From Planctomycetota bacterium (lineage in GTDB: Bacteria; Planctomycetota; GCA-002687715; CAIWVZ01), in assembly GCA_044222185.1 (NCBI GenBank), contig JBGANV010000002.1, positions 576,001-640,000 on the forward strand: 64,000 nucleotides of DNA, in the 5' to 3' direction. The position numbers and the translations under genes are program-made. Below the pieces are notes generated by a model. The model was not told the origin of the DNA. It saw nothing but the letters and a program-made list of their open reading frames with translations, and did no database searches. How positions within the stretch are numbered: the first letter of the stretch is position 1; each line of letters starts with the position of its first letter. Of this stretch, positions 1,993 through 62,053 are shown one piece after another.

Positions 1993-3447
1993 ATGCGAAC
2001 GCGACTCGTCGGGCTCGGTTGTGCATTCATGATGGCTCTCTCCGTGTCGGTGGCGGCTCAACAGAGCGTGCCCTTCACGCGCAGCGGAGATGTCCTCGTC
2101 GTCGACACGGTCGGTGATCGCATCGTCCGTCTACAGGACCTGGATTTGGACGGCGCTTTCACGAGCCCGGGCGAGTCGACCGTGTTCTTCCAGAGCGGCA
2201 CGAACGGGATCACGGTCACGAACGTGAACGCCATCGCCACGGCGGAGGACGGCACGGTCTACCTGTCGGATCCGACGGCGCATCTCGTGGTGCGCCTGAA
2301 GGACGTCGACGGCGACGGGGCGGCCATGGCAGCGAACGAAAGCCAGGTGTTCTTCAGCGCCGCCAACGGGTCGGGCATCTTCCTCGCGCTGAACTGGGCG
2401 TTGGCATGTTCGACGGACGGCTTCGTCTACGTCGCGCAGGCGAACAACGCGACCGGCGGCTTCGACTCCGTCATGCGTCTGCGCGACCTCAACAACGACG
2501 GCGATGCGGAAGATGCAGGCGAAGCGGTCGACTATGCGCGGTTCGCCGTCGGTGGTGCGGTTGCCGACTCCGTTCCCTCGGGCCTCGCCATCGGCAACGA
2601 CGGAACCCTCTACTACGTCAACAACGGAACGAGCGGAGCCGTCGCCAAGGGCGTCTATCGCATGCACGACGACGTGATCCCCAACGGCGTGTGCACCGAT
2701 CCGGGTGAAGTGTCGATCTTCTTCACACCGACGGCCGTCCCGAGCGTCACGTCGCAGTACTGGTCCCTCACGACCGACCGAAGCGGCAACTTCTTCCTGC
2801 ACGACACGGGCGCCGAGCGCATCATCAAGTTCAACGACCTGAACGCGGACCTGGTGATCCAGAACGCGTCCGAGTCCCTGATCTACTACTCGGTGCCGAG
2901 TGCGTCGAACATGTGGGGCTCGGCGCTCGCGTCCGACGGCACGCTGTTCGTCTGCGAAGATCAGTCACCGGACCGGGTGTACGCGTTGCGTGACCTCGAT
3001 CAGAACGGCGACTGCCTCGGCGTGAACGAGAAGACCGACGCGTTCACGTTCCCGACGTCGGGCACGAGCGCGATCTACTCGCCGCGGGCGATCACCACGA
3101 TGAAGGGGCCCGGGTTGCGCATGAATCCGTTGCCGATCCAGATCGGCAACAACGCCACCCTGACGATGGAGGGAACGGCCGGCGAAGCGATGAACGTCTA
3201 CATGTCGCTGGGGACGCTCAACCTGCCCGTCCCGCCGTTCGGAACCCTCGGCATCGACGTGTTCACGCCGGGCCTCTACCTGGAGTTCGTCCCGCTGTTC
3301 CCCACGAGCCCGCCGGGCTCCGACGCCCTCACGCTGGGCATCCCATCGGATCCGAACCTCCTCGCGCTCACGGTGTACCTGCAAGCGATCGGCGGCGCGC
3401 CGAGCCGGCTGCTGTTGTCGAACACGCTCACGGTGACGTTCCAGTAG
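1993..3447 (+). CDS. secreted beta-propeller protein with repeated DxDxDG-type motifs and a C-terminal module
   Basis: Signal peptide MRTRLVG...VAAQ from ATG 1993; ~60-aa repeats each with RLxDL(D/N)xDG; C-terminal IPSDPNL..YLQA..LSNTL module. Confidence 0.75.
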   Translation: MRTRLVGLGCAFMMALSVSVAAQQSVPFTRSGDVLVVDTVGDRIVRLQDLDLDGAFTSPGESTVFFQSGTNGITVTNVNAIATAEDGTVYLSDPTAHLVVRLKDVDGDGAAMAANESQVFFSAANGSGIFLALNWALACSTDGFVYVAQANNATGGFDSVMRLRDLNNDGDAEDAGEAVDYARFAVGGAVADSVPSGLAIGNDGTLYYVNNGTSGAVAKGVYRMHDDVIPNGVCTDPGEVSIFFTPTAVPSVTSQYWSLTTDRSGNFFLHDTGAERIIKFNDLNADLVIQNASESLIYYSVPSASNMWGSALASDGTLFVCEDQSPDRVYALRDLDQNGDCLGVNEKTDAFTFPTSGTSAIYSPRAITTMKGPGLRMNPLPIQIGNNATLTMEGTAGEAMNVYMSLGTLNLPVPPFGTLGIDVFTPGLYLEFVPLFPTSPPGSDALTLGIPSDPNLLALTVYLQAIGGAPSRLLLSNTLTVTFQ

Positions 3448-36040: not shown

Positions 36041-39000
36041 TCAGAGCGTTTCGATTCGCGGCCAGCCGAGCTTGAACCCGCCTGGTGCCGTCGCGTCGAG
36101 GTAGGCCACCTGCATCGTGAACGTGACGTTCAACGGCGCCGAAGGCCTCACGAATCCGGGTAGCGTGAACTTCCCCGTCGGCGGATTCGTCAGCGGGTTG
36201 CTTCCCAGGATCGCCGCGGGGTTCGGCGGGCCGAACACCCCGATGCCGTCGAGGATCGGAAGCGTCGCTCCAGGAGTGCCGACGCCGAGCACGAGGTTCG
36301 CCGTGAGATCGGGCCAGTGGAAGACGGGCGCCGGAGCGGCGAAGTCGACGATCAGTGCGAACGGCGCTCCCACGGGCCCACCTTCGATCACCGCCGCGTA
36401 GGACTCGTTCGGCAGCGGGTCGAGGGGGTAGCGGATGACCGTTCCCACGTTGTTGCCGCCAGGGCCCACGGGCACGGCGAACGTGTTGGAGACGGCGAAG
36501 TGCCCGTTTTCGACGACCAACGCGACGGCGCCAGCGCCCCGAGTCTCGGGCACGCCAGGTCCGACCTGGCAGGTCAGGTGCGCCGAGTCGATGAACGTCG
36601 TGGGAAGCGTGGCGATGCCCGCATGGACCACGGACGACGGCAGGAACGCGAGTCCGGTGATCGACAGGGTGACGGGCGGCGAAGCGAGCGTCATCACGGG
36701 GAGCGTCGTCGGAGTCGCCGCCGTGATCCGCGGCGCCGTCACGTCGAACGACGACGCTGCCGACGTCCCGCCACCGGGGGCAGGCGCCGTCACCGTGATC
36801 GCGCCCGTTCCCGGAACGGCGAGCTGGCTGGCCGAGATCGTGACGACGAGGTGGAGCGAATTCACCATGAGCGTGGGGATCGGGGCTCCATTCCACCTGG
36901 CGACGGCGCCGGGGAAGACGGGAGTGGTTCCGTCCATGAAGATGTCCACGTTCGTCGCGGGGCCACCTGCGATCGTCCCCGACGGCGAGACCATCGCGAG
37001 GATCGGTACGGCCGCATTCACCGTGAACGTGGACGTGGACGAGATGCCGCCGCCCGGCGCGGGGTTCTGCACGCGGATCGAGTGGACGCCCGGAGATGCG
37101 AGGAGCGAGGCGGGAAGCGTCAACGTGATCGCCGTCGGCGTGACGGACGTCACGGCGAGGGACGTCGTGACGTCCCAACGCACGTCGCTGAACGCGTTGA
37201 ACCCCGAACCCGCGAGCGTGATGGTCGTCGCGCCCGCGTTCGCCAGGACGGACGTTGGCGTGACGCTCGTGAGCGACGGCGCCGGATTGGCGACGGGCGT
37301 GACGGAGACGGTCGCCGTCGTGCCGGACACCGTGAATCCCGTGCCGCGCCGAACGACGATGGCATGCCACCCGGCCTGGAGCGGAACGCTCGACTGCGTC
37401 CCGAAGCCCGCCGAGAGATCGGCCTGCGCCAGCGGTCGCCAGGCCGCGGACGCGCCCGGCCGGAAGAGGCTCCATGCGAAGCCGCTCGGCCCGGTGACGC
37501 CGAGGTCGTAGGGACCCGGAGTCGTGACGTTGAACTCGAACGTGTACACGGCGGGGAACGGCGAAAGGGTCGCGCTCGACGGCGTGCCCGGCGTCATCGT
37601 GATGACGTTCGACTCGTGCAGCGTGCCGCTCATGGACCCGAGGATGCCCGTGCCCTGGAGGATGCCGTTCGTGGGGGCGATCGTTCCGAGATGGCCGTTC
37701 GCGACGAGGACCGACGTCCCCGCGCCGACGAACGACTGCGCGGCGCCCATGGAGACGCCCCATCCGCCGGCGGTGATGCCGTTGCCCGAGTAGATGCCGA
37801 CGGCGTTCCAGCGCGACGCCGACGGAACCATGGAGAAGGTGTAGGCCGGGGAGTTCACGGCGACCGACGCGCCGGGACCGGCGAGCGTCAGGTGCGACGA
37901 CGACGCGAGCGCCGCCAGGCTGTACGGGAGATCGGTCGTCGACGGCGGCCCGTCATGGACGATGGCGATGGCGTAGGCGCCGGGCTGCAACGTGATCGTC
38001 GTCCCCGCGTCGCCGACGATGCCGCTCGCGATCGCCTGGTTGCGACCGATCCAACCCGCCGTCGTTCCCGGTGCGAAGATGAACCACTTCAGCGAGGGGT
38101 CGCCCGTGATGAGGAAGTCCTCGGTGAGAGGCACGAACGTGATCACTTCGTGCATCTTGATGACGTGACCCGCGGGCAGGGTCGTGACGACGAGGCCACC
38201 GTTTCCGAGCTGCACGGCCGGGGCGAACTCGATCGTTCCGGGGGCCGCGCCGCCCTGACGCACGGCGGTGCCGGTGGTCGGGAAGACGGCGCCGTTGTGG
38301 CCGTTGGCCACGCCAAACTCGGTGATCACCCCCTGGTTCACGCCGCCCGTCGAGCCCAGAAGCAGGCTCCAATCGTTCTGGCCAGCCAAGGCGACGCCAT
38401 TCCAGAACGATGCCGTGGGGGTGAGGACGAAATCCTGGAACTGACCCGCGATCGTCTGCGGTGTGTTGGCCGGCAGTGCGAGCGTCGTCCCCGTCGGAAC
38501 GACCGTCAGTGCGATGTTCGACGGCGTGACGGACGCCGCGTCACCGTCGCGATAGACGATGATGCAGTAGAACCCCGGACTGAGCGGGAACGTAGGCACG
38601 GTGCCGGTGTTGGCCGAACCGGCGGAGATCAGGCTCGTGGTGCGTTGCCACCACCCGGTGCCAGCGCCCGGGCTGTAGAGATGCCAGCTGAGCGACGGAT
38701 CGCCCGTCATCGTGATGTCGTAGTTGCCCGGGGTCGTCACCTGGAACTCGAAGGCGCGGAGGATGTCCCCGTTGGTCCAGGGTTGAACGGCCGTCTGACC
38801 GATCGTGATGGGCGTGGCGCTGCGGAACTGTGCGTGAGCCGTCGCCGAGCCGCTGAAGCGGTGCAGGCTTCCCGAGATCGGCGGCACCGTGCCCACGTGG
38901 CCGTTCGCGAGGAGGAAGTCACAGGTGTTGCCGCCGAACGCCGAGCCGACGTTCTCGCGGAAGATGTCCCAGTCGCTCTGCGACGAGACGCCCACGACGT

Positions 39001-40180
39001 TCCACTTCCCGGCGACGGGTGCGCAGCTGTAGATCGTGTCTGAGCACGTCACGAGCGGCGTGCCGCCATCCACGAGGAAGACGCCCGCGCAGCCACCGAC
39101 GGCGTTGATGGCAGACATGAGGGAGCCGTTGTTGAACGACGTCCCGCGGTTGCTCGTGAAGAAGGAGCAGGCGCCCGTGGTGTGGATGCCCGCGGTGAGG
39201 CTCGTCCCGTTGATGATCAGCGGGCCGCCCGAGGCTCCGTGGTCCGAATCGGCGTTGTGCAGGATGAGATGCGAGCCCACGGTCGGGAGACTCGCGCCGT
39301 CGGCCGACGTCTGCTGGACGTTGTTCCGCTCGGGCGTCGGTGACGTGTCGTTGCCGTACCCCGTCAGTCGCGCCGTGAAGAACTGGGGGATCGTCGGGAT
39401 GATGTCGAACCAGCCGTTGAACAACGCCATGTTCGTGCCCGCCGTGTTGGGATGAAGTCGTCCCACGGCCCAGTCGTCGCCATCGCCGCCCGCGTTGAAC
39501 TGCGTGACCGTATCGTCGCCGGGGAACTGGTCGAGGATGCCCGGGTGCAAGATCGATCCGCCAGGGGTCGACAGCGGCACGTTGATCTCGCCGACGACGC
39601 TCACGTTCGTGAGACCGTCGAAGCAGTGCCCTGCCGTGAGATAGGTGGCGTGATCGTTGATGAGCCACCCCGTGCAGATGAACGAGCCCTGGCTCGAGGC
39701 GATCATCAGCCGGCAGACGCGGTTGTCGAAACTCAACACGCGGTCATCCGAGCCGCAGACGTTCTCCGGGAGGAGCGGCGCCGCCTGCACCTGAGCCGAG
39801 TCGATCGAGACGGTTCCCTGCGAGTGCGCGCCCAATTCGAGGGCCACGTTCACTACGTTGCCGTTGAACCACCCTGTCGAGTTCCGCCATTCCTTGAGGC
39901 GGCGCTGATCGAGCCGGTGGACCTGCCCGTCGAGGGGGTTCATCACGACGATGGCGTCGTGCACGCCGGCCAGTTCGGCCGCATCGAAGTGGAGCCGGAG
40001 CGACGTCGCCCCGGGAACCTGGACGGTCTCGGTCCAAACGGTCGTCGGGGTTTCAGCCGCGTTCGAGCGGGCGCCGCTGGCGATCGAGATCGGCGCGACG
40101 AATGAGTTGACGACGGCCTGCCCGAGGAGCCCATGGCTCACGAGCAGCGCCGAAAGAACGAATCGAGTTCCGGTCTTCAT
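36041..40180 (-). CDS. large secreted trypsin-like serine protease with tandem repeats, IPT/TIG domains and a C-terminal module
   Basis: GGAGGTG RBS, signal peptide; catalytic motifs TAGHC, DDWAVGRL, GASGGP; three WN..ANGH repeats; PAPSLTSVTP...GSGF IPT repeats. Confidence 0.88.
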   Translation of the reverse strand: MKTGTRFVLSALLVSHGLLGQAVVNSFVAPISIASGARSNAAETPTTVWTETVQVPGATSLRLHFDAAELAGVHDAIVVMNPLDGQVHRLDQRRLKEWRNSTGWFNGNVVNVALELGAHSQGTVSIDSAQVQAAPLLPENVCGSDDRVLSFDNRVCRLMIASSQGSFICTGWLINDHATYLTAGHCFDGLTNVSVVGEINVPLSTPGGSILHPGILDQFPGDDTVTQFNAGGDGDDWAVGRLHPNTAGTNMALFNGWFDIIPTIPQFFTARLTGYGNDTSPTPERNNVQQTSADGASLPTVGSHLILHNADSDHGASGGPLIINGTSLTAGIHTTGACSFFTSNRGTSFNNGSLMSAINAVGGCAGVFLVDGGTPLVTCSDTIYSCAPVAGKWNVVGVSSQSDWDIFRENVGSAFGGNTCDFLLANGHVGTVPPISGSLHRFSGSATAHAQFRSATPITIGQTAVQPWTNGDILRAFEFQVTTPGNYDITMTGDPSLSWHLYSPGAGTGWWQRTTSLISAGSANTGTVPTFPLSPGFYCIIVYRDGDAASVTPSNIALTVVPTGTTLALPANTPQTIAGQFQDFVLTPTASFWNGVALAGQNDWSLLLGSTGGVNQGVITEFGVANGHNGAVFPTTGTAVRQGGAAPGTIEFAPAVQLGNGGLVVTTLPAGHVIKMHEVITFVPLTEDFLITGDPSLKWFIFAPGTTAGWIGRNQAIASGIVGDAGTTITLQPGAYAIAIVHDGPPSTTDLPYSLAALASSSHLTLAGPGASVAVNSPAYTFSMVPSASRWNAVGIYSGNGITAGGWGVSMGAAQSFVGAGTSVLVANGHLGTIAPTNGILQGTGILGSMSGTLHESNVITMTPGTPSSATLSPFPAVYTFEFNVTTPGPYDLGVTGPSGFAWSLFRPGASAAWRPLAQADLSAGFGTQSSVPLQAGWHAIVVRRGTGFTVSGTTATVSVTPVANPAPSLTSVTPTSVLANAGATTITLAGSGFNAFSDVRWDVTTSLAVTSVTPTAITLTLPASLLASPGVHSIRVQNPAPGGGISSTSTFTVNAAVPILAMVSPSGTIAGGPATNVDIFMDGTTPVFPGAVARWNGAPIPTLMVNSLHLVVTISASQLAVPGTGAITVTAPAPGGGTSAASSFDVTAPRITAATPTTLPVMTLASPPVTLSITGLAFLPSSVVHAGIATLPTTFIDSAHLTCQVGPGVPETRGAGAVALVVENGHFAVSNTFAVPVGPGGNNVGTVIRYPLDPLPNESYAAVIEGGPVGAPFALIVDFAAPAPVFHWPDLTANLVLGVGTPGATLPILDGIGVFGPPNPAAILGSNPLTNPPTGKFTLPGFVRPSAPLNVTFTMQVAYLDATAPGGFKLGWPRIETL

Positions 40181-40380
40181 GAGTTCACCTCCGCACGGGG
40201 TTCCCGTGCTCGATGAAGCAGGAACTGCAACGGGTGCGACCCGAGGACAGGCCTGTCTCGCGGATTCGGGTAAAGACGGAATCGAAAAGAGGTTAGGGGC
40301 CTGCGTAAGAGGTCTGCGCTTCCGCCGACGGCCGGCCAACGAGTTGAGTTTTTGCGCCGTCGGGGACGCGTTCACGGGCG

Positions 40381-41082
40381 ATGCCCCGTGGTCCTGCGGA
40401 CACTTGCCCGGCCGCCACGGGTCGACCTACGATCGCCGCCGTGACCCCCCCGCTGCCCGCAACCTCCTGGGACCCAGCCGCCACGTCGATCCACGTTCAA
40501 CGTGCGCATCGCGGCGAGATGGAGAGTCTTGCCTGGGTGATCTCGCGGTTCTCGCCGCTCCTGCGGCTGCAGGCGTCCTTCCGCGTGCGGGGACCGCTCG
40601 CACGGCTCTATGATCCGGAGGACGTCGTGGACGAGGTCTGGGTCCGATCGCTCCCGCACATCGCCACGCTCACTCCGCGCGATGGGCGTCTCACCCCCGT
40701 GCTGCTGCGCTTCCTCGGCACGACCCTGCTCCGGCTCGTCAACGAACTGATGCGCAAGCACGTTCGCGGAAAGCCGCGGCTGATGGAGCCGACGTCGGAC
40801 GTGTCCGAGCCGCTGAACCGTCTGCCAGCCGACGTGACCGAGGCCTCCGAGCGCGCGCGGCGCGGCGAAGTCGCGCTCGCGATCGATCGCGCCGTCACGT
40901 CGCTCTCGGAGAGCGCTCGCGAGGTGTTCGTGCTCCGCGGGATCGAGCAGTTCTCCAACCAGGAGGTTGCCCGGCGGCTCGGCGAGTCCGAGAAGGCCGT
41001 CAGCATGCGGTACTCGCGAGCGCTCGACGCACTCCGCGAGACGCTTCCCCAATCCCTCGTCGACGAGCTGGCCGAAGTCTGA
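40381..41082 (+). CDS. ECF sigma-70 factor
   Basis: Sigma2 DPEDVVDEVW; sigma4 REVFVLR..EQFSNQEVARRLG.SEKAVSMRYSRA. Start uncertain. Confidence 0.88.
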   Translation: MPRGPADTCPAATGRPTIAAVTPPLPATSWDPAATSIHVQRAHRGEMESLAWVISRFSPLLRLQASFRVRGPLARLYDPEDVVDEVWVRSLPHIATLTPRDGRLTPVLLRFLGTTLLRLVNELMRKHVRGKPRLMEPTSDVSEPLNRLPADVTEASERARRGEVALAIDRAVTSLSESAREVFVLRGIEQFSNQEVARRLGESEKAVSMRYSRALDALRETLPQSLVDELAEV

Positions 41083-41106
41083 CGCCCTTCGCGGGGCGCC
41101 CGCAGA

Positions 41107-43569
41107 TCACTCTTGATCCTTGATCATCCGCTCCGTCTCGCTCACCCAATCCGCCGACGGATAGGTCCAACCGGGGCGTTTCGAGCCGAGTTCGTGACCC
41201 CGTTTCAAGTGAACGAGTGCCTGGTCGAGCGCCCCCTCGGCCCTCAGCAGCAGGCCCAGGTTGCAGTGCGCTTCGGCGACTGACGGATCCCGAGCGAGAC
41301 AGGCCTCGTACGCGGCCTTCGCATCGGCGCGGCGACCGACGGTCTCCAGCGCGGTCGCGTGGGTGAATCGCAACGCCGCGGAGTCGGGAAGTGCGGCGAC
41401 GCCGCGCTCGCTTGCGGCGAGTGCATCGTCGTTCCGTCCCACCTGCGTGAGGATCGCGGCGTAGTCGGTCCAGAAGAGTGGCGACTTCGGGTCGAGTTCC
41501 GTCGCCTGTCGATAGGCATCGACGGCGTCGTCCGGTCGCTTCTGCAGGAGGAGGAGGTAGCCCAGCTCATGGCGCAGATCGCCCTTGTCAGGGCGCAGGG
41601 CGACCGCCTTGCGGAAGAGGGTCTCGGCCTCGTCGAGCCGCCCCTGGTTCGCCGTGATTCGACCCAGCAGGCTGAACGCCTGCGCGTCGTTGGGCCGCAA
41701 GGTCAGAAGCTTGCGGAAGGCTGCGGCGCCAGCCGGCGGGTCCACGTCCATGAGCGCGAGGCCGCTCCACCAATAGGTGTCTTCGTGATCTGGCCACAGT
41801 CGTTGGATCGCCTGCGCTGCCGCGCGTGCCGCAGCCTCATCGTGTGCGTGGCCGGCGACGTGGGCAGCCTCGAAGTGGTAGAGGGCGCGGGCGACCGGTG
41901 CGAGACGGACGGCCTGATCGAAGGCACGCTGAGCTTCGAGCCAGACCTTCGCGTCGTTCGTGCGGTGGCCGGTGAGCGCGAGGCGCGACCCCGCGAGGAA
42001 CCACCCGAGCGCATCGTCGGGCTGGGCCAGACCCGACACCAAGGCCGTGGCCTCGGCCTCGCGGCCGAGCGCGCGAAGCACGTCGGCCCGCAGGCGGAGG
42101 AGACCGGGCGTGCGAGCGGAGACCTCTCCGTGCAAGTCGAGAATGCGCAGGGCGTCGGCCGGATCGTTCAGGCGCAGTCTCGAGAGCGCTGCGCCTGCGA
42201 CGGCCTCGGCAGAGTCCTGGCGAAGCGCGAGGGCGCGCGAGAATGCGTCGACGGCCTTGCGTGGGTCACCTTCGGCGAGGTCGCCGAAACCCAGTTCGAG
42301 CTCGCGCTCGACGGCGCGCGCGAGCCTTGCAGCATCCTGGGCGCGAATGTCCGGCAGTCGGACGAGGACGTAGACGACGAGGCCCGTCACGGTCGGAACG
42401 CCGACCATCAGCAGGAGGGCGAGAGCCGCGACGGCAGGCCGGCGCCGGGCCCAGCGAGACAAGCGCGTGAGCGCCGTCGCCGGCCGGGCGCGGATCGGCT
42501 CGTGCATCCGCAGCCTTCGCAGGTCTTCCGCCAGGTCGGCGGCGGTCTGATAGCGGCGTGTCGGCTCCTTCGCCATCGCAGTCTCGACGACGACGGCGAG
42601 GTCCGATGGGATTCCGCGCGCGAGCCGCCGGGGCGGCGAAGGGTCCTCGTCGAGGATCGCGCGGTAGAGCCCCTCACGCGTGGGTGCCGTGAACGGGCGG
42701 CGGAGCGTCACGCACTCGTAGAGGATCACTCCGAGGGCGTAGACGTCCACGCGGCGGTCGATCCTCGCACGGTCACCCCGGATCTGCTCCGGTGCCATGA
42801 ATGCCGGTGTTCCCAGCACGTCGCCGCTCTGAGTCAGTCCACCGTGGCCCTGGTCTTCGACCGCGGCGAGGCCGAAGTCGAGCACGACCGGCGCTCCGGT
42901 CGCGTCGATCATGACGTTCCCGGGCTTCAGATCGCGGTGCACGATCCCGGCTGCGTGGGCCGTCTCCACCGCGCGCGCCACGGACTCGATGACCGCGATC
43001 ACGTGCGTGATCCACTCGCGCCGCACGTCGAGTGGTTCCGACGCCTCGGGAAGATCCGCGCCGAGACGCTCGCGCTCGGAGTCGATCGATTGGGCGAGCG
43101 TTTCGCCCTTCACGAGCCGCATGGCGATCCACGCAGCTCCGTTCTCGGAGCCCGCTCCGAACACCGTGCAGATTCCCGGATGATCCAGCCGCGACAGCAG
43201 ATCAGCCTCGCGGCGGAACCGCGCGATCGCGGCCGCATTCTCGAAGAGCTCTGCCGCGCGGAAGACCTTCAGCGCGACGTCGCGAGAAAGGCGTGTGTCC
43301 CGCGCCCGATACACGGTCGCCTGTCCGCCGCGGCCGATCATCTCGTCGAGCCGGTAGTGGCCCAGCGTCTGGGGAGACTCGGACGACGGTGCCGACTCCA
43401 ACGCCTCGGCGTATTCGCGGCGGAGCAACTCCTCGTGCCCGGGGAAGGCCTTCAGGTAGTCGTCGACGGGTCGAGGGCCGCCGGATTCCATGTCCGCTGA
43501 GAGCGCGAGGAGGAACTCGTGAATCGTCACGAGTTCCGCCGCGTCCGATTCGGGGTCAGAAGGCTGCAT
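41107..43569 (-). CDS. Ser/Thr protein kinase with TM helix and TPR repeats
   Basis: GRGGQATVY, VALK, HRDLKPGN, DFGLA, GTPAFMAPEQ; C-terminal TPRs. Confidence 0.95.
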   Translation of the reverse strand: MQPSDPESDAAELVTIHEFLLALSADMESGGPRPVDDYLKAFPGHEELLRREYAEALESAPSSESPQTLGHYRLDEMIGRGGQATVYRARDTRLSRDVALKVFRAAELFENAAAIARFRREADLLSRLDHPGICTVFGAGSENGAAWIAMRLVKGETLAQSIDSERERLGADLPEASEPLDVRREWITHVIAVIESVARAVETAHAAGIVHRDLKPGNVMIDATGAPVVLDFGLAAVEDQGHGGLTQSGDVLGTPAFMAPEQIRGDRARIDRRVDVYALGVILYECVTLRRPFTAPTREGLYRAILDEDPSPPRRLARGIPSDLAVVVETAMAKEPTRRYQTAADLAEDLRRLRMHEPIRARPATALTRLSRWARRRPAVAALALLLMVGVPTVTGLVVYVLVRLPDIRAQDAARLARAVERELELGFGDLAEGDPRKAVDAFSRALALRQDSAEAVAGAALSRLRLNDPADALRILDLHGEVSARTPGLLRLRADVLRALGREAEATALVSGLAQPDDALGWFLAGSRLALTGHRTNDAKVWLEAQRAFDQAVRLAPVARALYHFEAAHVAGHAHDEAAARAAAQAIQRLWPDHEDTYWWSGLALMDVDPPAGAAAFRKLLTLRPNDAQAFSLLGRITANQGRLDEAETLFRKAVALRPDKGDLRHELGYLLLLQKRPDDAVDAYRQATELDPKSPLFWTDYAAILTQVGRNDDALAASERGVAALPDSAALRFTHATALETVGRRADAKAAYEACLARDPSVAEAHCNLGLLLRAEGALDQALVHLKRGHELGSKRPGWTYPSADWVSETERMIKDQE

Positions 43570-43713
43570 CGACGGGAACTTCCAGAGCACACCGGCGCCG
43601 GAACGCAGACAACCTACTCGCAAACGGGGCGGTGAGCGATGCGTCGCGTCCGCTCGCTCAAAGGTATCCGGTCGGGATGGAATCCACGGCGAGACCGCTC
43701 CACCCGCGCGCCC

Positions 43714-46700
43714 TCACGGGGCCTCGACGAAGCGACGCACTTTGCCCCAGACCGCGGCCCACGCGGTCCGTTCCGCTTCGTCGAATGCCGCGAGTGCGCT
43801 TGCGTCGCGAACCGCCGCGAGCCGCGGATCGAGGAGGATGCGGCACCAGAAGCTCCGCACGTCCGCAGGAATCTGCGAGCCGTGGGCGAGGTCAGGCGCA
43901 TGCAGGTCGAGTGCTTTCGCGAGGAAGCCGCGCGCCGCGGTACGCATGGACGCGTCGCCACGCGTCGAAAGCCCGACGGCAGCACTCGCCGCAACGTACA
44001 GGGCACGGTCGCGAAGCTCGGTCGAGACCTGGGCGGTCGGCCTATCGAGCACCTGACGCGCCACCGCGAGCGCCGCCGGGAACCGACCGCATACGAGAGC
44101 CGTCCAGGCGACCTCGCACTGCGTGAGCGGTGCTGGGGGCAGGCTCCCGCCGGCATCGAGCGCGTCGGCGATTTCGAGGTAGTCGAGCATGCCGCGGTCT
44201 CGCGGCGCGGCGTCCGTGAATCGCGCCGTCGGTCGCGACGCCGACGCGGCGAGCTCGACAGCGCGCGTGTCCGCGTCCAGCGCTTCGTCGAGGCGGCCCA
44301 TGTGGCGGAACGCCTCGGCGACGGCGGCATGAGAGGACGGATCATCCGGGCGGAGCTCCACCGCGCGCCGTGCTGCGGCCAGAGCCTCCTCGGTGAGTCC
44401 GACCTGGAGGAGCGCCGACGCCAGCGCGGATGCGGCATCCGCGTCCTTGGGACGGGCCGACGCGTAGCTGCGGCAGATCTCCACGAGTTCGACCAGATCG
44501 CCTCGATGGGTGAGCAGGATGCGCAGGTTCCCGAATGCGGTCGCATCACCCGGCTGGAGGCGCAGGCATTGGCGAAGCGGCGCGCGGGCTTCATCGAGCC
44601 GATCTGCCCGGGAGTAGGCCGCCGCGAGGTTGGCGAACGCGAATCCGATGGTGGGATCCAGCCGCGTGGCGCGCGCGAGCATCTCGATCGCTTCGTCGAC
44701 GTGTCCTTGCTTCAGAAGGTCCGTTCCGATCGACGCATGCGCGAACGCGTGGTCCGGATCGATGGCGAGCGCCCGCCTCTGCGCCTCCAACGCGTTCGCC
44801 GCGTCGCCCGATCGACCGTAGGCGGTGCCCAGCCACGACCAGGCCTCCGCACTCGGGGGGGCCAGCTCGACCGCGTGCCCGTAGGCAGCGATCGCCGCCG
44901 GGACGTCTTCCGTGCGGAGACAGGCTCCGCCGTAGCTCATCCACGCTTTTCGATAGGTCGGCGCGAGCTCGGTCGCACGCCGGAACGTGGCCACGGCGCG
45001 CGCGGTCGCCCCGGCCTTCTCCAGCCCGGCCGCAAGGTTCAGGGCGTGCACGGCACTGGTGGGGCTCAACGTACAGGCCTCCTCGTACTCGCGGATCGCC
45101 TCGTCCATCGCACCCCGCTCGGCGAGGGCGTGAGCGAGATCGCTGTGCGTCGAGGCAGACCGCGACCCGAGCTCGAGCGCTTTTCGGAAGCTCGCTTCGG
45201 CCGTCGGTCGGTCGATGACCTGCGTCGCGAAGCCGCGCCAATGCCAGCTCGAGGGGGCCTTGGGCCAGAGCGTGATGAGTTTCTCTCCGACCTGCGCAGC
45301 GCGTTCGTGATCGTTGCAGTGGTAGGTCGCGTGCGCGAGGCCGGCGACGTAGATGTGTCGGGCGATGGGGGAGAGCCGATCCGCTCGCTCGATGAGTGCC
45401 AGCGCACGCGGAAACGCATCCTTCGCGCCGCCGTGACCCCGCTCGAGCTCGTGGATCCCCGCCAGGAAGCAGTCGATGGCATCCGCGGGCTGGGGCGTCT
45501 CCGTGACGATCCGCTCGGCATCGTCCCGTCGGCCGAGACGCTCGAGCGCGCCCGCGCGGAGGAAGCGCAGCGATGGGTGGTGCGCCTCGAATTGCGGGTG
45601 CGCATCGAGGACGCCGAGCGCATCGTGCTGCTTCCCCTCTGCCAGGTAGGACATCACGACGCCGGCGATCGCCTCGACGCAGTCGGCCTGTTCGTCCAGG
45701 GCGCGCTCGAAGCAGGCCCGGGCATCCGCGGCGCTCGCTTCGCCCAGCTCGAGGTAGCCGTCGGTGATCGCCGATTCGACGCGATCCCGACGCAAGGCCT
45801 GCTCGGCCTGCGTGATCTCGGGCATCTTCGTCGCGAGCAGTGCCCACAAGCCAGCGACGATGGGGACGAGCACGACGAGGGTCACCGCGAGCAGGGCCTT
45901 GGCGGGCTCCCGCTGGGACCAACGCACGATCCGGCCCACGGTCGAGAGGGGCTTCACGGACACGGGATGTCCTTCGATCACCGCGCGCAGGTCGGCGGCC
46001 AGGGCCGCGGCCGTCTGGTAGCGGCGCATCGGCTCCTTCTCGAGCGCCGTCTGGATCACGGCGGTGAGGTCGCGGTCGATGGCCGGGTTGAGCCGGTGCG
46101 GATCCGGCACCGGGTCCCGGAGGATCGAGTGGTAGAGCGCGTCGATCGTCGGCTCGTCGAACGGGCGGCGAAGGGTCAGGCACTCGAAGAGCGTCACGCC
46201 GAGCGCGTAGATGTCGGTTGCGGGGTCCGGCTCGCCGCGGTTGCCCGCCAGCGTCTCCGGCGCCAGGTAGGCAGGCGTGCCGCACACGTCACCCGTACGT
46301 GTGAGGGTCGGCAGCGCGCCGTCGACGTCGCGCGCCAGGCCGAAGTCGAGGATGACCGGCTCGCCCGTCGGGTCGATCATGATGTTCTGCGGCTTGACGT
46401 CGCGGTGGACGACGCCGCGCTCGTGTGCGTCGTGCAGCGCGGAGGCGACCGACCGCACGATCCGCAAACGCTCGACGATCTGGTCACGCCGCGAGGGAAC
46501 CTGCCCCGCCTCTCGTTCCCGACAGATCCGGCGGTGGAGCGTTTCGCCCTCGACGAAGCGCATGGCGATGAACGGGATCCCCCCGTCGATTCCCGCGCGC
46601 AGCACGGTGCAGATTCCCCGATGCTCGAGCCGCGACGCCACTTCGGCCTCGCGCTGAAACCTCGCGACGTCGGACGCGCCGGCCAGGTGCCGCGACAGGA

Positions 46701-47037
46701 GCAGCTTGAGGGCCACCCGGCGGTTCAGCGGTTCTTCGATCGCCTCGAACACCACGCCCATGCCGCCGCGCCCGATCTCGCGGACGATCCGGTATTCGGC
46801 GACGCGAGATGGGGCCGCGAGTGTCTGCACGAAAACCGGAACGGTCGGGGGCGTGGTCGCGTCGACGACGTGACGCTCGAGGAGCGCGACGGCCGGGAGG
46901 AGTGTGCGCAGCGCATCCGCATGTTCGGGATGACGCGAGACCCACGTCGCGACGTCAGGCCGCAACCCTCTGCGACAGGCGTCGGCGAACGCGTCGACGA
47001 TCGCCTCCACGTCGTTCGGTCGTTCCGGCGCGGTCAT
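43714..47037 (-). CDS. Ser/Thr protein kinase with TM helix and TPR repeats
   Basis: GRGGMGVVF, HRDVKPQN, DFGLA, GTPAYLAPE; ATGA-coupled to ECF 47034..47687. Confidence 0.95.
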   Translation of the reverse strand: MTAPERPNDVEAIVDAFADACRRGLRPDVATWVSRHPEHADALRTLLPAVALLERHVVDATTPPTVPVFVQTLAAPSRVAEYRIVREIGRGGMGVVFEAIEEPLNRRVALKLLLSRHLAGASDVARFQREAEVASRLEHRGICTVLRAGIDGGIPFIAMRFVEGETLHRRICREREAGQVPSRRDQIVERLRIVRSVASALHDAHERGVVHRDVKPQNIMIDPTGEPVILDFGLARDVDGALPTLTRTGDVCGTPAYLAPETLAGNRGEPDPATDIYALGVTLFECLTLRRPFDEPTIDALYHSILRDPVPDPHRLNPAIDRDLTAVIQTALEKEPMRRYQTAAALAADLRAVIEGHPVSVKPLSTVGRIVRWSQREPAKALLAVTLVVLVPIVAGLWALLATKMPEITQAEQALRRDRVESAITDGYLELGEASAADARACFERALDEQADCVEAIAGVVMSYLAEGKQHDALGVLDAHPQFEAHHPSLRFLRAGALERLGRRDDAERIVTETPQPADAIDCFLAGIHELERGHGGAKDAFPRALALIERADRLSPIARHIYVAGLAHATYHCNDHERAAQVGEKLITLWPKAPSSWHWRGFATQVIDRPTAEASFRKALELGSRSASTHSDLAHALAERGAMDEAIREYEEACTLSPTSAVHALNLAAGLEKAGATARAVATFRRATELAPTYRKAWMSYGGACLRTEDVPAAIAAYGHAVELAPPSAEAWSWLGTAYGRSGDAANALEAQRRALAIDPDHAFAHASIGTDLLKQGHVDEAIEMLARATRLDPTIGFAFANLAAAYSRADRLDEARAPLRQCLRLQPGDATAFGNLRILLTHRGDLVELVEICRSYASARPKDADAASALASALLQVGLTEEALAAARRAVELRPDDPSSHAAVAEAFRHMGRLDEALDADTRAVELAASASRPTARFTDAAPRDRGMLDYLEIADALDAGGSLPPAPLTQCEVAWTALVCGRFPAALAVARQVLDRPTAQVSTELRDRALYVAASAAVGLSTRGDASMRTAARGFLAKALDLHAPDLAHGSQIPADVRSFWCRILLDPRLAAVRDASALAAFDEAERTAWAAVWGKVRRFVEAP

Positions 47038-47687
47038 CGTCGATCGGGTCCCGAGTCGCCGAGCGACGAGTCGATCATCCCTCGCAGGCGCGTCAGCGCT
47101 CGCAGGTAGCGCTTGCTCGCCGCCGAAGGCTCGAGTCCCAGTTCTCGCGCGACCTCCAGGTTCGACAGCTGCTCGAAGTGTCGCAGGCTGAGGACCTCCC
47201 GGTCCGCGGGTTCGAGCTGGGCGAGGGCGTGCTCGACGAGCATGCGACGCTCTGCCCGAACCGCTGCCTGCGTCGGGCTGGTCTGTTCGGCTGCGAACTG
47301 AGCCGCGAGGCAGTCGGCGGACGACGCGCCGTACAGCACTTCGCCATCCGTTTCTCGACGGACGTCGCGCAGATCGGCGCCGAGGTGGCGGCGGCACAGC
47401 TCCGCCATGTGCTGTGCCGTGAGGAATCGCAGCCACAGGAAGAAGGGCATTTCCCGTCGCTCCGTGTACCGGGGAAGACGGCGCGCCGCCTCGAGCGTCA
47501 CGTCCTGCAGGACGTCCGAGACGTCGACGCGAGTTCGCAACCTGCGATCGAGCCGCGCTTCGACCATTCGACGGAGGCGGTCCCGGTCGCGGTCGAGCAG
47601 AGCCGCAACCGCCTCCCCGTCGCCGTTCGCGGCGCGGTCGAGCAACGCCTTCGTGTGTGCTTGTTCTTCCGGCGGAGGTGATGTCAT
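47034..47687 (-). CDS. ECF sigma-70 factor, planctomycete kinase-associated type
   Basis: RLDRRLRTRVDVSDVLQD, FFLWLR, SPTQAA, DREVLSLRHFEQLSNLEVA..LG..AASKRYLRAL. Confidence 0.92.
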   Translation of the reverse strand: MTSPPPEEQAHTKALLDRAANGDGEAVAALLDRDRDRLRRMVEARLDRRLRTRVDVSDVLQDVTLEAARRLPRYTERREMPFFLWLRFLTAQHMAELCRRHLGADLRDVRRETDGEVLYGASSADCLAAQFAAEQTSPTQAAVRAERRMLVEHALAQLEPADREVLSLRHFEQLSNLEVARELGLEPSAASKRYLRALTRLRGMIDSSLGDSGPDRR

Positions 47688-47763
47688 CGGCAAGTGGCGC
47701 CCGCGGTTGCGCACCGTCGATCATCGGCGGCGTCCTGGAAAGGGTCAAGTCCGGCGGCCGGCT

Positions 47764-50778: not shown

Positions 50779-51335
50779 GCGGTCGCTCCCAGCGTGAGGT
50801 TTCGGCGAAGCCAGGCGCGCGCCATCCGCCAGTCGCCCTTCACCGTGCGTTCGGAAACCCCGACGATGGCCGCCACTTCGGCGACCTCGAGGCCGCCGAA
50901 GAAACGCAATTCCACGATGCGGCATTGGCGCTCGTCGAGGACTCGCAGCCGGTCGAGAGCTTCGTTCAGCAGGAGTACGTCGACGGTGGCGGGCGCATCG
51001 GCGAGCGCCGCCGTGTGGAGAGTGACGGGCTTGCCGCCCGAGCCGCGCTTCTTGGCCTTCGCGTGGCGCGCGTGGTCGACCAGCAGCCGGCGGATGACGA
51101 TCGACGCGACGGCGAGGAAGTGCGTGCGGTCGTGATAGTTGGCGCGGCGCTGGTCGGAGAGCTTGAACCACGCTTCGTGTACGAGCGTCGTGGCGGAGAT
51201 GCCATCACTCCCGGCCGCCCTCCGGAGGACCGCGCGCGCGATCTCGCGCAGCTCGGCGTACAGCTCCGCGAGGAGGCGGTCTGTCGCAGGCGTGGTGGCT
51301 TCGACTCCAACGGTCGACGATCTCGCGACACGCAT
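50775..51335 (-). CDS. ECF sigma factor, ECF43/TIGR02999-like
   Basis: LYAELREIA, SATTLVHEAW, DRTHFLA, RRLLVDHAR..KRG, IVELRFFGGL, DWRMARAWL. Confidence 0.93.
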   Translation of the reverse strand: MRVARSSTVGVEATTPATDRLLAELYAELREIARAVLRRAAGSDGISATTLVHEAWFKLSDQRRANYHDRTHFLAVASIVIRRLLVDHARHAKAKKRGSGGKPVTLHTAALADAPATVDVLLLNEALDRLRVLDERQCRIVELRFFGGLEVAEVAAIVGVSERTVKGDWRMARAWLRRNLTLGATA

Positions 51336-51559: not shown

Positions 51560-54500
51560 ATGAGCGCTGCAATCGTCCGCTGGATCCTCTTCCTGACGAC
51601 ACTCATGACGGTGCCGTTCCTGCCCGCGAAAGACCCGATGGCGCCACCGCCGGCGCCGCCACCCCTCCGGATTCCGGCGACGCCGCCGCGCGTGTTCTGC
51701 TTCCGCGTGACCGACATCGAGCGGGTCCCGGGGACGACGAGTTCGTTCGTCTTCGAGTTCGAGGTCCTGAACTGGACCGGTGTTCCCGTTCACGGGCTGA
51801 TGATGGCCGTCACGACGGCGACCACGAAGGTGGGTGCGACGGGGTTCCCGAACATCTCCTGGACGACGATTCCCGCGTTGGACATCCCGGGCGTCGCGTT
51901 CGGCGGAGCGAGCATCGACTCGGACGGCCGCGGCGGCGCCGTGGGGCAACCTCCGGGCGCCAACGAGATCGGGGTCGGTGTATTCGATTCGCCCGCGATC
52001 CACAGTGGCCGTGGACGTGGGGACCTCGGCCCCGGCGTCGCGAGCAACGATTGGATCGCGACGCTCTCCACGCCGACGCTCGCAACCTGGGGAACGGCTG
52101 CAGTCGGCACGCCGGTTCCGCCGCGCGACGTCATGACCGCCATGATCGGAGGCGATCTGCGAAACTGCTGGGAAGCCACGAACGCCGTCGCGCGCCTGGT
52201 ACCGGGTGCGCGTCTCACGGCGGTCACCGGGCCGGCCGTTCCCGTGAACCCGAGCGTCTTCGGCTGCGGCGGCCGACCTCCGTTCGTCGACGGCGTCGAC
52301 GCGCTGGGCGATCTCTCCGCCGACGGTGGACCTGGCGTCATGCCCAATCCGATCCCAGCCGGCACGGGGAACGCACTCGATGGGTTCACCCTCACCATCG
52401 ACGACTTCGACGAGGGCGAGACGCTCTCGTTCAACTGGTTCCTGCTCGACGCGTCGGGGACGCCGATCGGATCGCCACCGACGGGGATCAGCGTTGCTGG
52501 TTGCGTGGGTGCGAGCTGTGGCGGCCCACTCCCCGCTCCGCTGACGTGCTGCGGGCTCCAGGGCAACGGCAACCCGATGGGCTACGGAACGTTCACACTC
52601 GAGCGCCTTCCGCCGGCGATTCCGATCCCGCCCGGGGCGGATCCGGCACTGTTTGGGATGGCCGGCGTCACCCAAACCCCCTACGAGTTCTACGACGGTG
52701 TGTTCGCGTTGCCGAATCCGACGCAGTTCGCTGCGGAGTTCGGATCCGGTCTCACGGGGCCGTTCATGAACGCGAGTGACAACCTGTTCGGCGTGATCCC
52801 CAACACCGCGCCGTACTGCGCCGTGGTGCCGGCGAACGGCGGTGTCGCCGATCCGGGCTTCGATGGCCAGGTGGGCGGCCCGACGCTTGCACCGCCCTGG
52901 TCCGCCTTCACGGGCCCCAACATTCCGAACGCGGCGACGATCGAGACGCGAACGAGCAGCGACGGCGCCGGCTTCCCGAGAGCGGGCCGGAACTGGCTTC
53001 GGATGGTGTCGTCCGGGTTGACGTTCGCGGCGCAGCCCAGCGGGTTCTCCTGCGGCTTCCAACAAGGAACCGTGACCGAAGTCCGTCAGACGCTCGTGAT
53101 CCCCCAGCTTTCGAGCAACGCCGTCATGAGCTTCGCGTGGACGTGGCAATCGGGCGAGGCGCCGCAGAACGGCACGTTCGACGACTTCGCCACCATCGAC
53201 CTCGTCGACGTGACGTTCTCCTCCTGCCCGCAGCACGTGCAGAACCTCCTGTTCGTCGATTCGAACGCGAGCCTGTCGCTCACGAACATCCCCGGTTCGG
53301 CCGTGCCGCCCGCCGGTGTGATCGTGCCGTTCGTCAACACCGGCACGAAGTGGGAAGTGGCTCCCGTGGGCCCGAAGCGCGCACTCGTGCCGATTCCCGC
53401 GTCCCTCAGCGGACGCACGCTCGAGCTTCGCATCGTCTGCGGAAATGCGGGCGCGGCGATCAACAACGTCTCCGTGTTGAAGGTCGACGAGATCTACCTC
53501 CTCGACGCGGTTGCGTGCGCCCAGCCCAACACTCCGTTCGCCGGGTTCGCCTTCGCCGGCGGCTCGGGGTGCGCGCCCACGACGGTCCAGCCCGGCTTCC
53601 GCAGCTACGCACCGGGGGAGACCATGGTGGCCACGTGCTTCGGCAACGCCAACGCGCCGTTCATGTTGATCGCGGGGTCGGCCGTCTCTCACGGTTCCGT
53701 GATCGCTCCGTTCGGTGTGTTGAACTTGAGTCCGGCGCTTTCGCTGATGCCGATCGTCGACGGAATCGGCAGCGGCGCTCCTCCCGGTTCGCTCGGCAAC
53801 ACGGGAAGCCTCGGCGTGCAGTCCGTGAACTTCACGATGCCGGCGCTTCCGACGGGGCCCTTCGCGGGGTTCCAGGCGGTCGTGACCGACCCGGGCTCTT
53901 CATCGGGATTCACTCTGACCGCGGCCACGCACATCAACGTCGAGAACGGGATCCCTTCCAACTTCGTCGGCACGACGATCGTCTCCATTCCCGGGAACGG
54001 TTCCGTGTTCGTTCCGTTCGGCTCGGGCTTCACGTTCCCGTACTACGGCGTGGCGCGGACCGGCGTCTTCGTGAACGAGAACGGCACGCTCTCGTTCGGG
54101 GCGGCCTTGCCGACGGCTGTGGAGTCGGTCGCGGCGCTCACCAGCGCGCCGGCGAAGATCGCCGTGATGTGGGATGACTACGACACCTCGGTCGCCGGGC
54201 AGATCGCCTACGCGCAAACCCCCACGACGTTCACGGTGTCTTGGACGAACGTGCGGCAGACCGGAGCGGCATCGACGGACTCGAGCACGTTCGGCGTGAT
54301 CCTCGAAAGCAACGGATCGATTCGCATGGCTTGGGGGCGCGTGGACTCGTCCGACGGCATCATCGGAATCTCCAACGGCGCGCCGACGCCGCCGGCCAAG
54401 TCGTTCACGTGGTTCTCCCAACTCGGGACGATCACGGGAGCGGCAGGGCAGGCGCTCTACGAGCAGTGGCCGCAGCCCGGGTCGGGATTCTGCCCGCCAG

Positions 54501-54571
54501 CCGGCGGCACGATCGTGATCCGCCCGATCCGACCGGGCGCCGTCGCCGGCGCGAGCGGGTATCGACTGTGA
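51560..54571 (+). CDS. large secreted multidomain protein (internal copy of shared module; C-terminal NIDO-like domain)
   Basis: AGGAG RBS and signal peptide; C-terminal GFTFPYYG...VNENGTLSFG...IAVMWDD. Confidence 0.8.
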   Translation: MSAAIVRWILFLTTLMTVPFLPAKDPMAPPPAPPPLRIPATPPRVFCFRVTDIERVPGTTSSFVFEFEVLNWTGVPVHGLMMAVTTATTKVGATGFPNISWTTIPALDIPGVAFGGASIDSDGRGGAVGQPPGANEIGVGVFDSPAIHSGRGRGDLGPGVASNDWIATLSTPTLATWGTAAVGTPVPPRDVMTAMIGGDLRNCWEATNAVARLVPGARLTAVTGPAVPVNPSVFGCGGRPPFVDGVDALGDLSADGGPGVMPNPIPAGTGNALDGFTLTIDDFDEGETLSFNWFLLDASGTPIGSPPTGISVAGCVGASCGGPLPAPLTCCGLQGNGNPMGYGTFTLERLPPAIPIPPGADPALFGMAGVTQTPYEFYDGVFALPNPTQFAAEFGSGLTGPFMNASDNLFGVIPNTAPYCAVVPANGGVADPGFDGQVGGPTLAPPWSAFTGPNIPNAATIETRTSSDGAGFPRAGRNWLRMVSSGLTFAAQPSGFSCGFQQGTVTEVRQTLVIPQLSSNAVMSFAWTWQSGEAPQNGTFDDFATIDLVDVTFSSCPQHVQNLLFVDSNASLSLTNIPGSAVPPAGVIVPFVNTGTKWEVAPVGPKRALVPIPASLSGRTLELRIVCGNAGAAINNVSVLKVDEIYLLDAVACAQPNTPFAGFAFAGGSGCAPTTVQPGFRSYAPGETMVATCFGNANAPFMLIAGSAVSHGSVIAPFGVLNLSPALSLMPIVDGIGSGAPPGSLGNTGSLGVQSVNFTMPALPTGPFAGFQAVVTDPGSSSGFTLTAATHINVENGIPSNFVGTTIVSIPGNGSVFVPFGSGFTFPYYGVARTGVFVNENGTLSFGAALPTAVESVAALTSAPAKIAVMWDDYDTSVAGQIAYAQTPTTFTVSWTNVRQTGAASTDSSTFGVILESNGSIRMAWGRVDSSDGIIGISNGAPTPPAKSFTWFSQLGTITGAAGQALYEQWPQPGSGFCPPAGGTIVIRPIRPGAVAGASGYRL

Positions 54572-60793: not shown

Positions 60794-62053
60794 TCAGTAG
60801 CCCAGCACGACGTGAAGCCCGTTCGTCGACGCGAGCCCGGTCGACTGAAGCACGAACGCCTGGAAGTCGGCGACGAGACACGCGAGCGACGGGTCATTCG
60901 CAATCGGCGTGCTGAACGTCCACGTGCCCGTCGCATCCGTCGTGATGACGTTGAACAGCGTCAGCGGCGGATTCTGGAGCACGAGTGAACATCCACCGGG
61001 CAGCACCACGGGCGGCGCCGCGTTGCCGGTGAAGAGAAAGCCGATCGCTCCTGGCGTCGAATTGGCCAACGTCACCGTGCCCGTCGTCCCGAGCAGCGGC
61101 AGCGTGGATGAGAGCGTCGGCGCCGGCGTTCCGCAGCTGACACCGAACGCCTGAGTCGCCGCCTGAACGGCCGTGACCAGCGTGAACGTCCCGCCCGGGC
61201 TGCCGCTCGCCGCCGCGACGTTGATCCGGTACACCTGGCCGGCCGTGGCGCCAACCGTCAGGCGCGAGCGGGTCCCGCAGCCATTGTCGTCGCACGCCAC
61301 GAGCACGAGGTTCGAGCACGGCCCGCTGAACACGCGCAAGACCGAATCGAAGCTGGCCGCGCCACCATCCGACGGGCACAGCGATACGAGCACGGACGCC
61401 GTGCACGTCGCCGTGTAGGTGTACCAGACGTCCTTTGCGACACCGCCGCACGGTGCCAGCGCGCCGCCCGACAGCGTGGCGTAGAGATTGGTGCCCGGCG
61501 TGGATCCGCTCGTGATCGGCGTCGCATCCGCGCACAGGTCATTCGCCGGGCGGATGTTCACCGTGTAGTCCTTCACGCTTCCCGATAGCGATGACCCGCA
61601 CGGGTAGTTCGGCGTCACGTTCGCCCGCAGCCGCAACCGCGTCGTCAGCGCCGACCCCGGCGGCGCCGTGATCGTGCCCGAGTACGTGCGCGTCGTTCCC
61701 GTTCCCGGATCGAGTGCGAGTGCCACGCCCTCGCTTGCGTCGATGAAGTCCCCGTCGCCGTTCCAGTCGACGTAGACCGAGACGAGGATCGGCAGCAGGA
61801 TGTTCGAGAACCAGTTGGACACGGTCACGCTGACCGGCTGCGGCACTCCCGTCGTCAGCGTGGCGAACTGCGCCGTTCGGTCCTCGTATCCGCCGCACGG
61901 ATACGAGTCGTTGATCGCCTCGAACGTGAAGTGACTCGCGAACTCACCTCCGCCGCACGGAAACGTGATCGACGCCGCGCAGTACTGGCCCGCGGCCTGG
62001 AGCGCGAGCACGGTGGACAGGAGCACCGAGAGCCCGAAGCGATGGAACCCCAT
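60794..62053 (-). CDS. secreted GEVED-domain protein with C-terminal module
   Basis: AAGGAGG RBS, signal peptide; YVDWNGDGDF..TRLRLR..GSVKDYTVNI (GEVED-like); PANDLCADA..DVWY domain; C-terminal module. Confidence 0.85.
   Translation of the reverse strand: MGFHRFGLSVLLSTVLALQAAGQYCAASITFPCGGGEFASHFTFEAINDSYPCGGYEDRTAQFATLTTGVPQPVSVTVSNWFSNILLPILVSVYVDWNGDGDFIDASEGVALALDPGTGTTRTYSGTITAPPGSALTTRLRLRANVTPNYPCGSSLSGSVKDYTVNIRPANDLCADATPITSGSTPGTNLYATLSGGALAPCGGVAKDVWYTYTATCTASVLVSLCPSDGGAASFDSVLRVFSGPCSNLVLVACDDNGCGTRSRLTVGATAGQVYRINVAAASGSPGGTFTLVTAVQAATQAFGVSCGTPAPTLSSTLPLLGTTGTVTLANSTPGAIGFLFTGNAAPPVVLPGGCSLVLQNPPLTLFNVITTDATGTWTFSTPIANDPSLACLVADFQAFVLQSTGLASTNGLHVVLGY

Follow-up and report, generated by a model that had tools for sequence, protein, structure and literature searches.

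A lineage-specific, mostly C-terminal Ig-like domain on exported proteins of a planctomycete branch is a candidate surface-sorting or anchoring module

Many unrelated signal-peptide proteins of Bacteroidota end in an Ig-like beta-sandwich, the type A C-terminal domain (CTD) of the secretion system known as type IX (T9SS). As described in the available portion of PMC11285876, T9SS tails are 67-108 aa long, strictly C-terminal, usually cleaved by PorU, and carry a conserved Lys in the last strand. Other terminal modules are confined to single lineages: the GC-type dockerin (NF041540) occurs on many exported proteins of Phycisphaerales, and the Solibacter C-terminal domain (TIGR03437) shows that a terminal domain without a known function can be restricted to one lineage. 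Dockerins are built of short calcium-loop/helix repeats, and PEP-CTERM tails of the exosortase system combine a PEP motif, a transmembrane helix and a basic tail. Here we describe a domain that likewise ends many unrelated exported proteins of one planctomycete branch, and that differs from each of these modules in sequence.

The stretch of DNA analysed (the window) comprises 64,000 nucleotides at 68% GC and lies in a genome, referred to here as G000, of 7.08 Mb and 93.8% completeness. A sequence-only reading of the window had pointed out a recurring module in four otherwise different secreted proteins. All four segments, with the motifs quoted for them, are present where that reading placed them, and signal peptides were recognised on all four proteins by eye and by our own hydrophobicity rule, not by SignalP. 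The segments are two subtypes of one family. Subtype A comprises the C-terminal copy (114 aa; 3103..3444, plus strand) of a 484-aa beta-propeller-type exported protein (1993..3447, plus strand; database protein P0151), which has a weak DUF7133 match in Pfam under the cut-off, and the C-terminal copy (60797..61159, minus strand) of a 419-aa exported protein with a GEVED domain (60794..62053, minus strand). For the propeller copy the predicted fold is an Ig-like beta-sandwich to which an uncharged hairpin is added. Subtype B, which bears a DGIG insertion, is found at the C-terminus (36044..36463, minus strand) of a 1379-aa trypsin-like protease with IPT/TIG and choice-of-anchor Z repeats (36041..40180, minus strand) and within an exported 1003-aa protein without a Pfam family (51560..54571, plus strand; below, the 51560 protein), where the copy (53555..53950, plus strand) has the same predicted strand order as subtype A. 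This last copy is internal, as had been seen before: 206 further residues follow it, forming a module that recurs in about 30 other carriers. Directly behind the GEVED carrier lies the gene of a small exported 161-aa protein (60283-60768, minus strand), which could be assigned to no family; G000 holds two paralogs of it.

Single-sequence phmmer searches did not connect the four segments to each other. Iterated HMMs, run over 72,359 six-frame ORFs without any reversed decoy passing, joined the propeller segment to GEVED and the protease segment to that of the 51560 protein, and at round 6 the HMM seeded with the latter reached the propeller (2e-9) and the protease (1e-13), not GEVED. Profile-profile comparison united the subtypes: in hhalign the 62-row subtype A alignment (A1) matched the independent 22-row subtype B alignment (A2) at 97%, with E 1.1e-10. 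Every reversed control for the 36 pairs of subfamilies stayed at or below 2.4%; among the true pairs some scored low (54% for the protease group with the propeller group, less than 8% for three others), and a trimmed profile of all C-terminal copies misses both B segments. Inside one genome the subtypes are about 20-27% identical. A divergent subtype ending in Q-x-W-Y-R-D (WYRD) aligned, as a 31-row profile, to subtype A at 94-97% and to T9SS-type tails at 0.4%; this profile supersedes a first one of 6 rows (3 distinct), which had shown no similarity to subtype A. The original alignment by eye is thus upheld through profiles as a single family, with the amendment that it splits into two subtypes and that single sequences do not link them. 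Nor did the absence of a recognised name change on searching, as no Pfam or NCBIfam model covers the 62 A or the 22 B members (best E 0.003, single members). The nearest clusters in the ESM Atlas are unnamed Planctomycetota proteins (0.95-0.96, just under the recognition threshold), and the best named match is CHRD at 0.82. A PDB sequence search returned designed Pizza repeats as its best match (E 0.006), which we took as chance, and neocarzinostatin-type Ig proteins at E 0.12-7.5.

The HMM search of the genome that had been proposed was run on 4,832 genes, called with our own codon model and not with a standard gene caller. A first union yielded 287 ORFs, 285 of them single-copy and 225 with the domain within 5 aa of the stop. 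Nine subfamily HMMs (E<=1e-3) found 349 genes and 0 decoys, or 351 genes together with the earlier union; three further tail clusters, comprising 81, 16 and 4 genes, match the subfamily profiles at about 95%, and another 15 genes come from the HMMs of these clusters, so that finally 467 of the 4,832 genes carry the domain. Carriers account for 300,069 of the 2,078,041 coding residues, or about 14%. The domain is present in 424 of 505 low-charge genes of at least 250 aa (84%), a fraction partly shaped by the low-charge pre-selection from which 101 of the added genes came; before these additions 277 of 447 genes with less than 8% K+R+E carried it, as did, in the 351-gene set, 0 of 1,646 genes with more than 16%. 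Where we speak of extracellular-type proteins, the term refers to composition and cargo type, not to localisation.

A signal-peptide-like start was recognised by our own heuristic in 190 of 269 C-terminal carriers vs 1,102 of 3,047 other genes; 41 of the 269 failed the rule, many visibly from mis-called starts. Genes with a Walker A motif carry the domain in 3 of 108 cases and kinase genes in 1 of 124, where the ORF has the look of two genes joined in a single frame. One 1,225-codon frame (G000:C14:150280-153957) begins with a Ser/Thr kinase and continues downstream into a carrier that has a signal-peptide-like stretch of its own; it may be a true fusion or the product of a lost stop. The cargo is diverse: 369 C-terminal carriers fall into 191 clusters, and Pfam cargo was assigned in 58 of the best 150 library matches (FG-GAP, Kelch, RCC1, trypsin, M10, astacin, Ig, laminin G and GEVED). 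Lipobox-like signals, by our own rule for low-charge genes, were found in 4 of 424 carriers vs 9 of 81 non-carriers (p=2e-5). Three cassettes of sigma-factor-like and Ser/Thr kinase genes adjoin carrier genes within the window (40372-51335; the ECF label is by eye), and genome-wide a carrier lies no more than two genes away from 78 of 125 kinase genes, compared with 1,117 of the 4,241 remaining genes; such cassettes are possibly regulators of surface-protein expression. A separate family of seven G000 genes (e.g., C2:1428-2933 and C14:50779-53719) encodes Cys-rich exported proteins of about 420 aa with a conserved C-terminus of their own, unrelated to the domain (hhalign 0.4%).

In the 351-gene set 286 copies are C-terminal and 65 are not, 37 of the latter lying at or near the N-terminus and 28 internally. 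N-terminal copies often precede Kelch-like propellers or a module of about 205 aa without a Pfam match, which we take to be NIDO-like. At least nine stand-alone proteins of 145-172 aa consist of a signal peptide and the domain alone; their genes are scattered and have no common neighbours. Four close paralogs of 157-170 aa with a signal peptide and one domain lie at unrelated loci (G000:C10:62928, C6:570841, C1:2248092 and C6:761498). Two exported proteins (G000:C1:1324421-1325803 and C6:335673-336992) consist solely of three tandem copies joined by Pro-rich linkers. In the 1.93 Mb (about 83%) analysed of a streamlined genome, G003, there are 43 carriers, 33 of them terminal, and the N-terminal and stand-alone forms are kept; N-terminal placement is conserved in four ortholog pairs between the two genomes. 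The segments accordingly share common profiles and a common predicted fold, match no Pfam or NCBIfam model, and are neither equally frequent in cytoplasmic-type proteins nor randomly placed.

Beyond this genome, the A1 profile matched 25,611 protein clusters at 50% identity, mostly annotated as hypothetical. Among the best 150 of these clusters 24 come from G000, and of the other 126, 124 match within 5 aa of the end, a positional count obtained with a profile that was itself built from C-terminal copies. A survey of 251 Planctomycetota genomes, with at most 18 candidates scored per genome, gave at least 7 matches in 51, one or two in 6 and none in 194, and by family the presence of the domain is nearly all-or-none. 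For 50 of 67 genomes reached via named loci, at least 12 matches were found in 14 of 22 labelled as planctomycetes and in one of two without a label; none of the 26 labelled as other phyla reached this number, two of them having 1 and 3 matches. Of the 7 genomes in one family (f8), 6 show an expansion of the WYRD subtype, which none of 28 domain-free genomes contains. One locus (L169, genome G305) labelled Myxococcota encodes the planctomycete-type WYRD subtype along with 3 A1 matches, and may be mislabelled, contaminated or the result of transfer. The carriers may represent the 'Saltatorellus'/OM190-type branch. A full-text literature search, covering main texts and few subscription journals, returned nothing describing the domain; the terms 'secret', 'C-terminal' and 'S-layer' are absent from the accessible part of 10.1101/817700, as is 'C-terminal' from that of 10.64898/2026.10.26.761892.

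The suggestion that the module is a candidate sorting or anchoring signal gains from these data, being lineage-specific and borne by unrelated exported proteins, and gains further from what relatives of the same cargo carry in its place. Self-matches set aside, the propeller cargo has 11 relatives: 7 have the domain at their end, 2 RTX repeats, 1 a PEP-CTERM tail (P0162; 24.2 bits, cut-off 20.7) and 1 a dockerin-like module (by eye). The GEVED protein has 7 partial relatives, and at their ends a T9SS tail was found in 4 and dockerin_GC in 1 (P0166). Across 67 FG-GAP loci the domain occurs in 10, nine labelled as planctomycetes and one unlabelled; loci from other taxa have T9SS/FlgD-like, dockerin-like or transmembrane tails (by eye). 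Since same-cargo relatives end in RTX, PEP-CTERM, T9SS or dockerin modules, the domain appears to fill a sorting or anchor slot. The GC-type dockerin, from the same phylum, takes this slot on related cargo (P0166), yet is unrelated in sequence, and the domain is all-beta. In one comparison of five genomes the two were reciprocal: a Phycisphaerales genome (G270) had 80 dockerin_GC matches and 1 domain match, while G000, G003 and G156 had no dockerin_GC.

The T9SS tail has GEVED and GBD_T9SS_assoc as cargo domains in common with this domain. The domain is longer (114-140 aa vs 67-108 aa), has no Lys in the last six residues of any of 62 members where the T9SS CTD has its conserved last-strand Lys, and is non-terminal in 65 of 351 copies where the CTD is strictly C-terminal, the T9SS features being those given in the available portion of PMC11285876. 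None of the 62 A or 22 B members matches TIGR04183 or PF18962, and the profile similarity between the domain and T9SS-type tails is at most 0.6%. T9SS tails were not found in G000 (0 matches) or G156, whereas three control genomes had 38-102, and SprA (PF14349) gave 0 matches in these two genomes and was positive in 3 of 3 controls. TIGR04189 had no match in G000, and its control was silent too. A PorV-like match in G000 was weak (25.5 bits, cut-off 90) and corresponds to a FadL barrel; three C25-family peptidase genes are present in G000, with no shared context seen. A T9SS is thus not supported by the sequence searches, a very divergent SprA homolog being conceivable.

As for PEP-CTERM, this domain is folded and lacks a transmembrane tail, although one propeller-cargo relative ends in PEP-CTERM. 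Exosortase (PF09721) gave 0 matches in G000 with a positive control, and no copy of the domain has the PEP motif, transmembrane helix and basic tail, of which one loose motif match occurs in 4,832 genes. Mutual exclusion of PEP-CTERM and the domain was rejected, as 17 of 46 domain-rich genomes have 1-4 PEP-CTERM matches. TIGR03437 matched 1 of 62 members at E 0.003; homology to it is unsupported, the 12 weak matches in G000 all lying under the cut-off, mostly within carrier genes and, where coordinates are comparable, upstream of the domain.

The structure prediction and comparison with T9SS and Ig folds that had been suggested gave a domain of about 115-140 residues, predicted to be an Ig-like antiparallel beta-sandwich. 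AlphaFold2 models of both subtypes are all-beta with the same strand order (pLDDT 93.6 for A and 80.4 for B). The best structural matches of both are macroglobulin domains of the alpha-2-macroglobulin/CD109/TEP1/complement group: A2ML1 (Z 11.2) and CD109 (Z 10.3) for subtype A, C5 (Z 8.6) and CD109 (Z 8.1) for subtype B, the two meeting in the same macroglobulin-type Ig domains such as CD109 556-747. At 6-17% identity these matches reflect a common Ig-type fold alone and carry no functional inference. The PorU C-terminal domain (6ZA2 1056-1156; limits A1054-Q1158 in the available portion of PMC11285876) matched subtype A at Z 9.0 (rmsd 2.6, 87 aligned), but many unrelated Ig and macroglobulin domains score to within about 1 Z unit of it, and the match is hence not specific among Ig folds. 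Lower matches include Ig-like domains of S-layer proteins (7ptp, Z 7.7; 8qox, Z 7.3). The top Foldseek matches, to the lipid-binding proteins GM2 activator and NPC2, were set aside at TM 0.34-0.44. The extra hairpin spans residues 38-51 of the model, and its tip reads PFG in several subtypes. It is 2.8% charged vs 6.7% for the whole domain and not enriched in bulky hydrophobics (36% vs 34% in the rest of the domain); most of the invariant residues (Gly, Pro and one Gln) look structural.

A search for co-distributed machinery, also suggested beforehand, produced one co-occurring lipoprotein and no reader. The panel combined 46 domain-rich genomes, out of the 50 that there are besides G000, with the first 34 of the domain-free ones. 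G000 encodes 8 secretins and a gspD-E-F-pseudopilin operon, the core of which is kept in G003 (GspD-like ortholog 341 bits, cut-off 351; GspK-like 63.5 bits, cut-off 130). The eight secretin loci (e.g., G000:C1:1541589-1552520, C7:76435-90831 and C15:159358-168939) lie in type II or type IV pilus-like clusters, two of which have two secretins each. GspK-like genes were rejected as partners, being phylum-wide (38 of 46 domain-rich vs 32 of 34 domain-free genomes). A prepilin-like gene cluster (G000:C1:17281-25726; L216 in G003) includes a 1,682-aa member without an NCBIfam match, and ORFs of similar length matching the GspK model occur across the phylum. Rejected too was a FadL/PorV-like barrel beside an N-terminal carrier (G000:C1:1663341-1664714), present in 3 of 46 domain-rich vs 7 of 34 domain-free genomes. 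A heuristic barrel screen of G000 gave 11 candidates and no large barrel; by Pfam they are OprO/P porins, alginate-export barrels, a TonB receptor, LptD and FadL, plus one without a barrel family (TPR alone) and two without any family. Among co-oriented neighbours of carriers the recurring groups were sigma factors, kinases and glycosyltransferases only.

The analysed part of G003 has 1,320 reciprocal matches to G000, and 292 exported-like non-carriers are among the matches listed; 15 of these orthologs were scanned against NCBIfam and one lipoprotein was profiled. This Ig/YVTN-propeller lipoprotein (G000:C1:1303878-1306556; ortholog L236:14581-17526 in G003) is conserved and low in charge, and its gene sits among housekeeping genes. 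A profile of the N-terminal 540 residues of the G003 ortholog gave matches at E<=2.1e-13 in 44 of the 46 domain-rich genomes, and in 7 of the 34 domain-free ones at 2.2e-10 or weaker; outside the order of G000 most matches cover about 165 residues. Related genes often stand in tandem in domain-rich genomes. We regard this co-occurrence as a lead only, as shared ancestry would look the same if the carriers form one clade.

The reading that we tentatively favour, at a confidence a little short of even, is that the domain is an uncleaved docking module that holds exported proteins on the cell surface. Judging from the signal peptides, cargo would cross the inner membrane by Sec; a general pathway would then take it through the outer membrane, and the one that the genome encodes is type II secretion. 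The folded domain would then bind non-covalently to one common, putative site in the envelope, either an outer-membrane lipid or glycan contacted via the uncharged hairpin or a lipid-anchored scaffold protein. Because N-terminal, internal, tandem and stand-alone copies exist, uncleaved docking fits better than a processed signal of the T9SS or PEP-CTERM type; the proposed equivalence with those systems is supported in part, through the exchange of modules. Docking is also preferred over a cleaved signal because the domain is mostly missing from low-charge lipoproteins, proteins that come with an anchor already, although this is also expected if lipoproteins use another export route. An export signal fits as well, because most copies are C-terminal in G000 (286/351) and in the best matches elsewhere (124/126); it is possible, if rather unlikely, that the folded domain works at the outer membrane in the manner of a T9SS CTD, read by the type II system or another translocator. 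Its presence on 84% of extracellular-type proteins, mostly at the terminus, its exchange with RTX and T9SS export signals, and the secretins and gsp operon retained in G003 argue for such a role, and a position-tolerant folded signal would be compatible with the copy-position and lipoprotein data. The PorU CTD among the structural matches points the same way, but is no better a match than many Ig and macroglobulin domains, and the absence of profile similarity to T9SS-type tails, the failure to find SprA, and the FadL barrel and GspK-like matches that do not track the domain weigh against it, as do stand-alone and tandem-only proteins, which have no cargo to export.

Those same proteins would be plain tiles, and the cargo proteins decorated ones, if the domain self-assembled into a surface coat or lattice. 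This we consider improbable: the very low charge of the domain and the share of coding residues taken up by carriers are consistent with a coat, but a single interface is hard to square with subtypes that are 20-27% identical in one genome, the S-layer matches (7ptp, 8qox) have scores such as any Ig fold may reach, and the stand-alone genes are scattered without common neighbours. About equally small is the chance that the domain serves passively, as a stalk, a cap or a module for retention in the periplasm (binding peptidoglycan, for instance), having spread by shuffling and lacking a dedicated reader. The generic Ig fold with its mostly structural conservation, and a machinery search that found nothing dedicated, would suit it; single copies in 285 of 287 proteins are unlike spacer Ig domains, and the nearly all-or-none presence by family, the exchange with sorting modules and the cargo classes, typical of extracellular adhesins and proteases, speak against it.

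By its family relations, size, position, cargo and range, this is a large, uncatalogued domain family with a strong, though putative, role. With a single profile, the likely surface proteome of a planctomycete branch that is mostly uncultured can be picked out, in this genome about 470 genes. Going beyond the docking module, the domain might, though this is doubtful, be the address label of an undescribed envelope system in one deep planctomycete branch, in which a dedicated reader, possibly the co-occurring Ig/propeller lipoprotein of about 900-1200 aa, exports or docks about one tenth of the proteome uncleaved; if true, this would be a functional counterpart of the T9SS built from unrelated parts. 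If a reader exists, it would define a new export or display route for two-membrane bacteria, and the domain would be the bait with which to find it.
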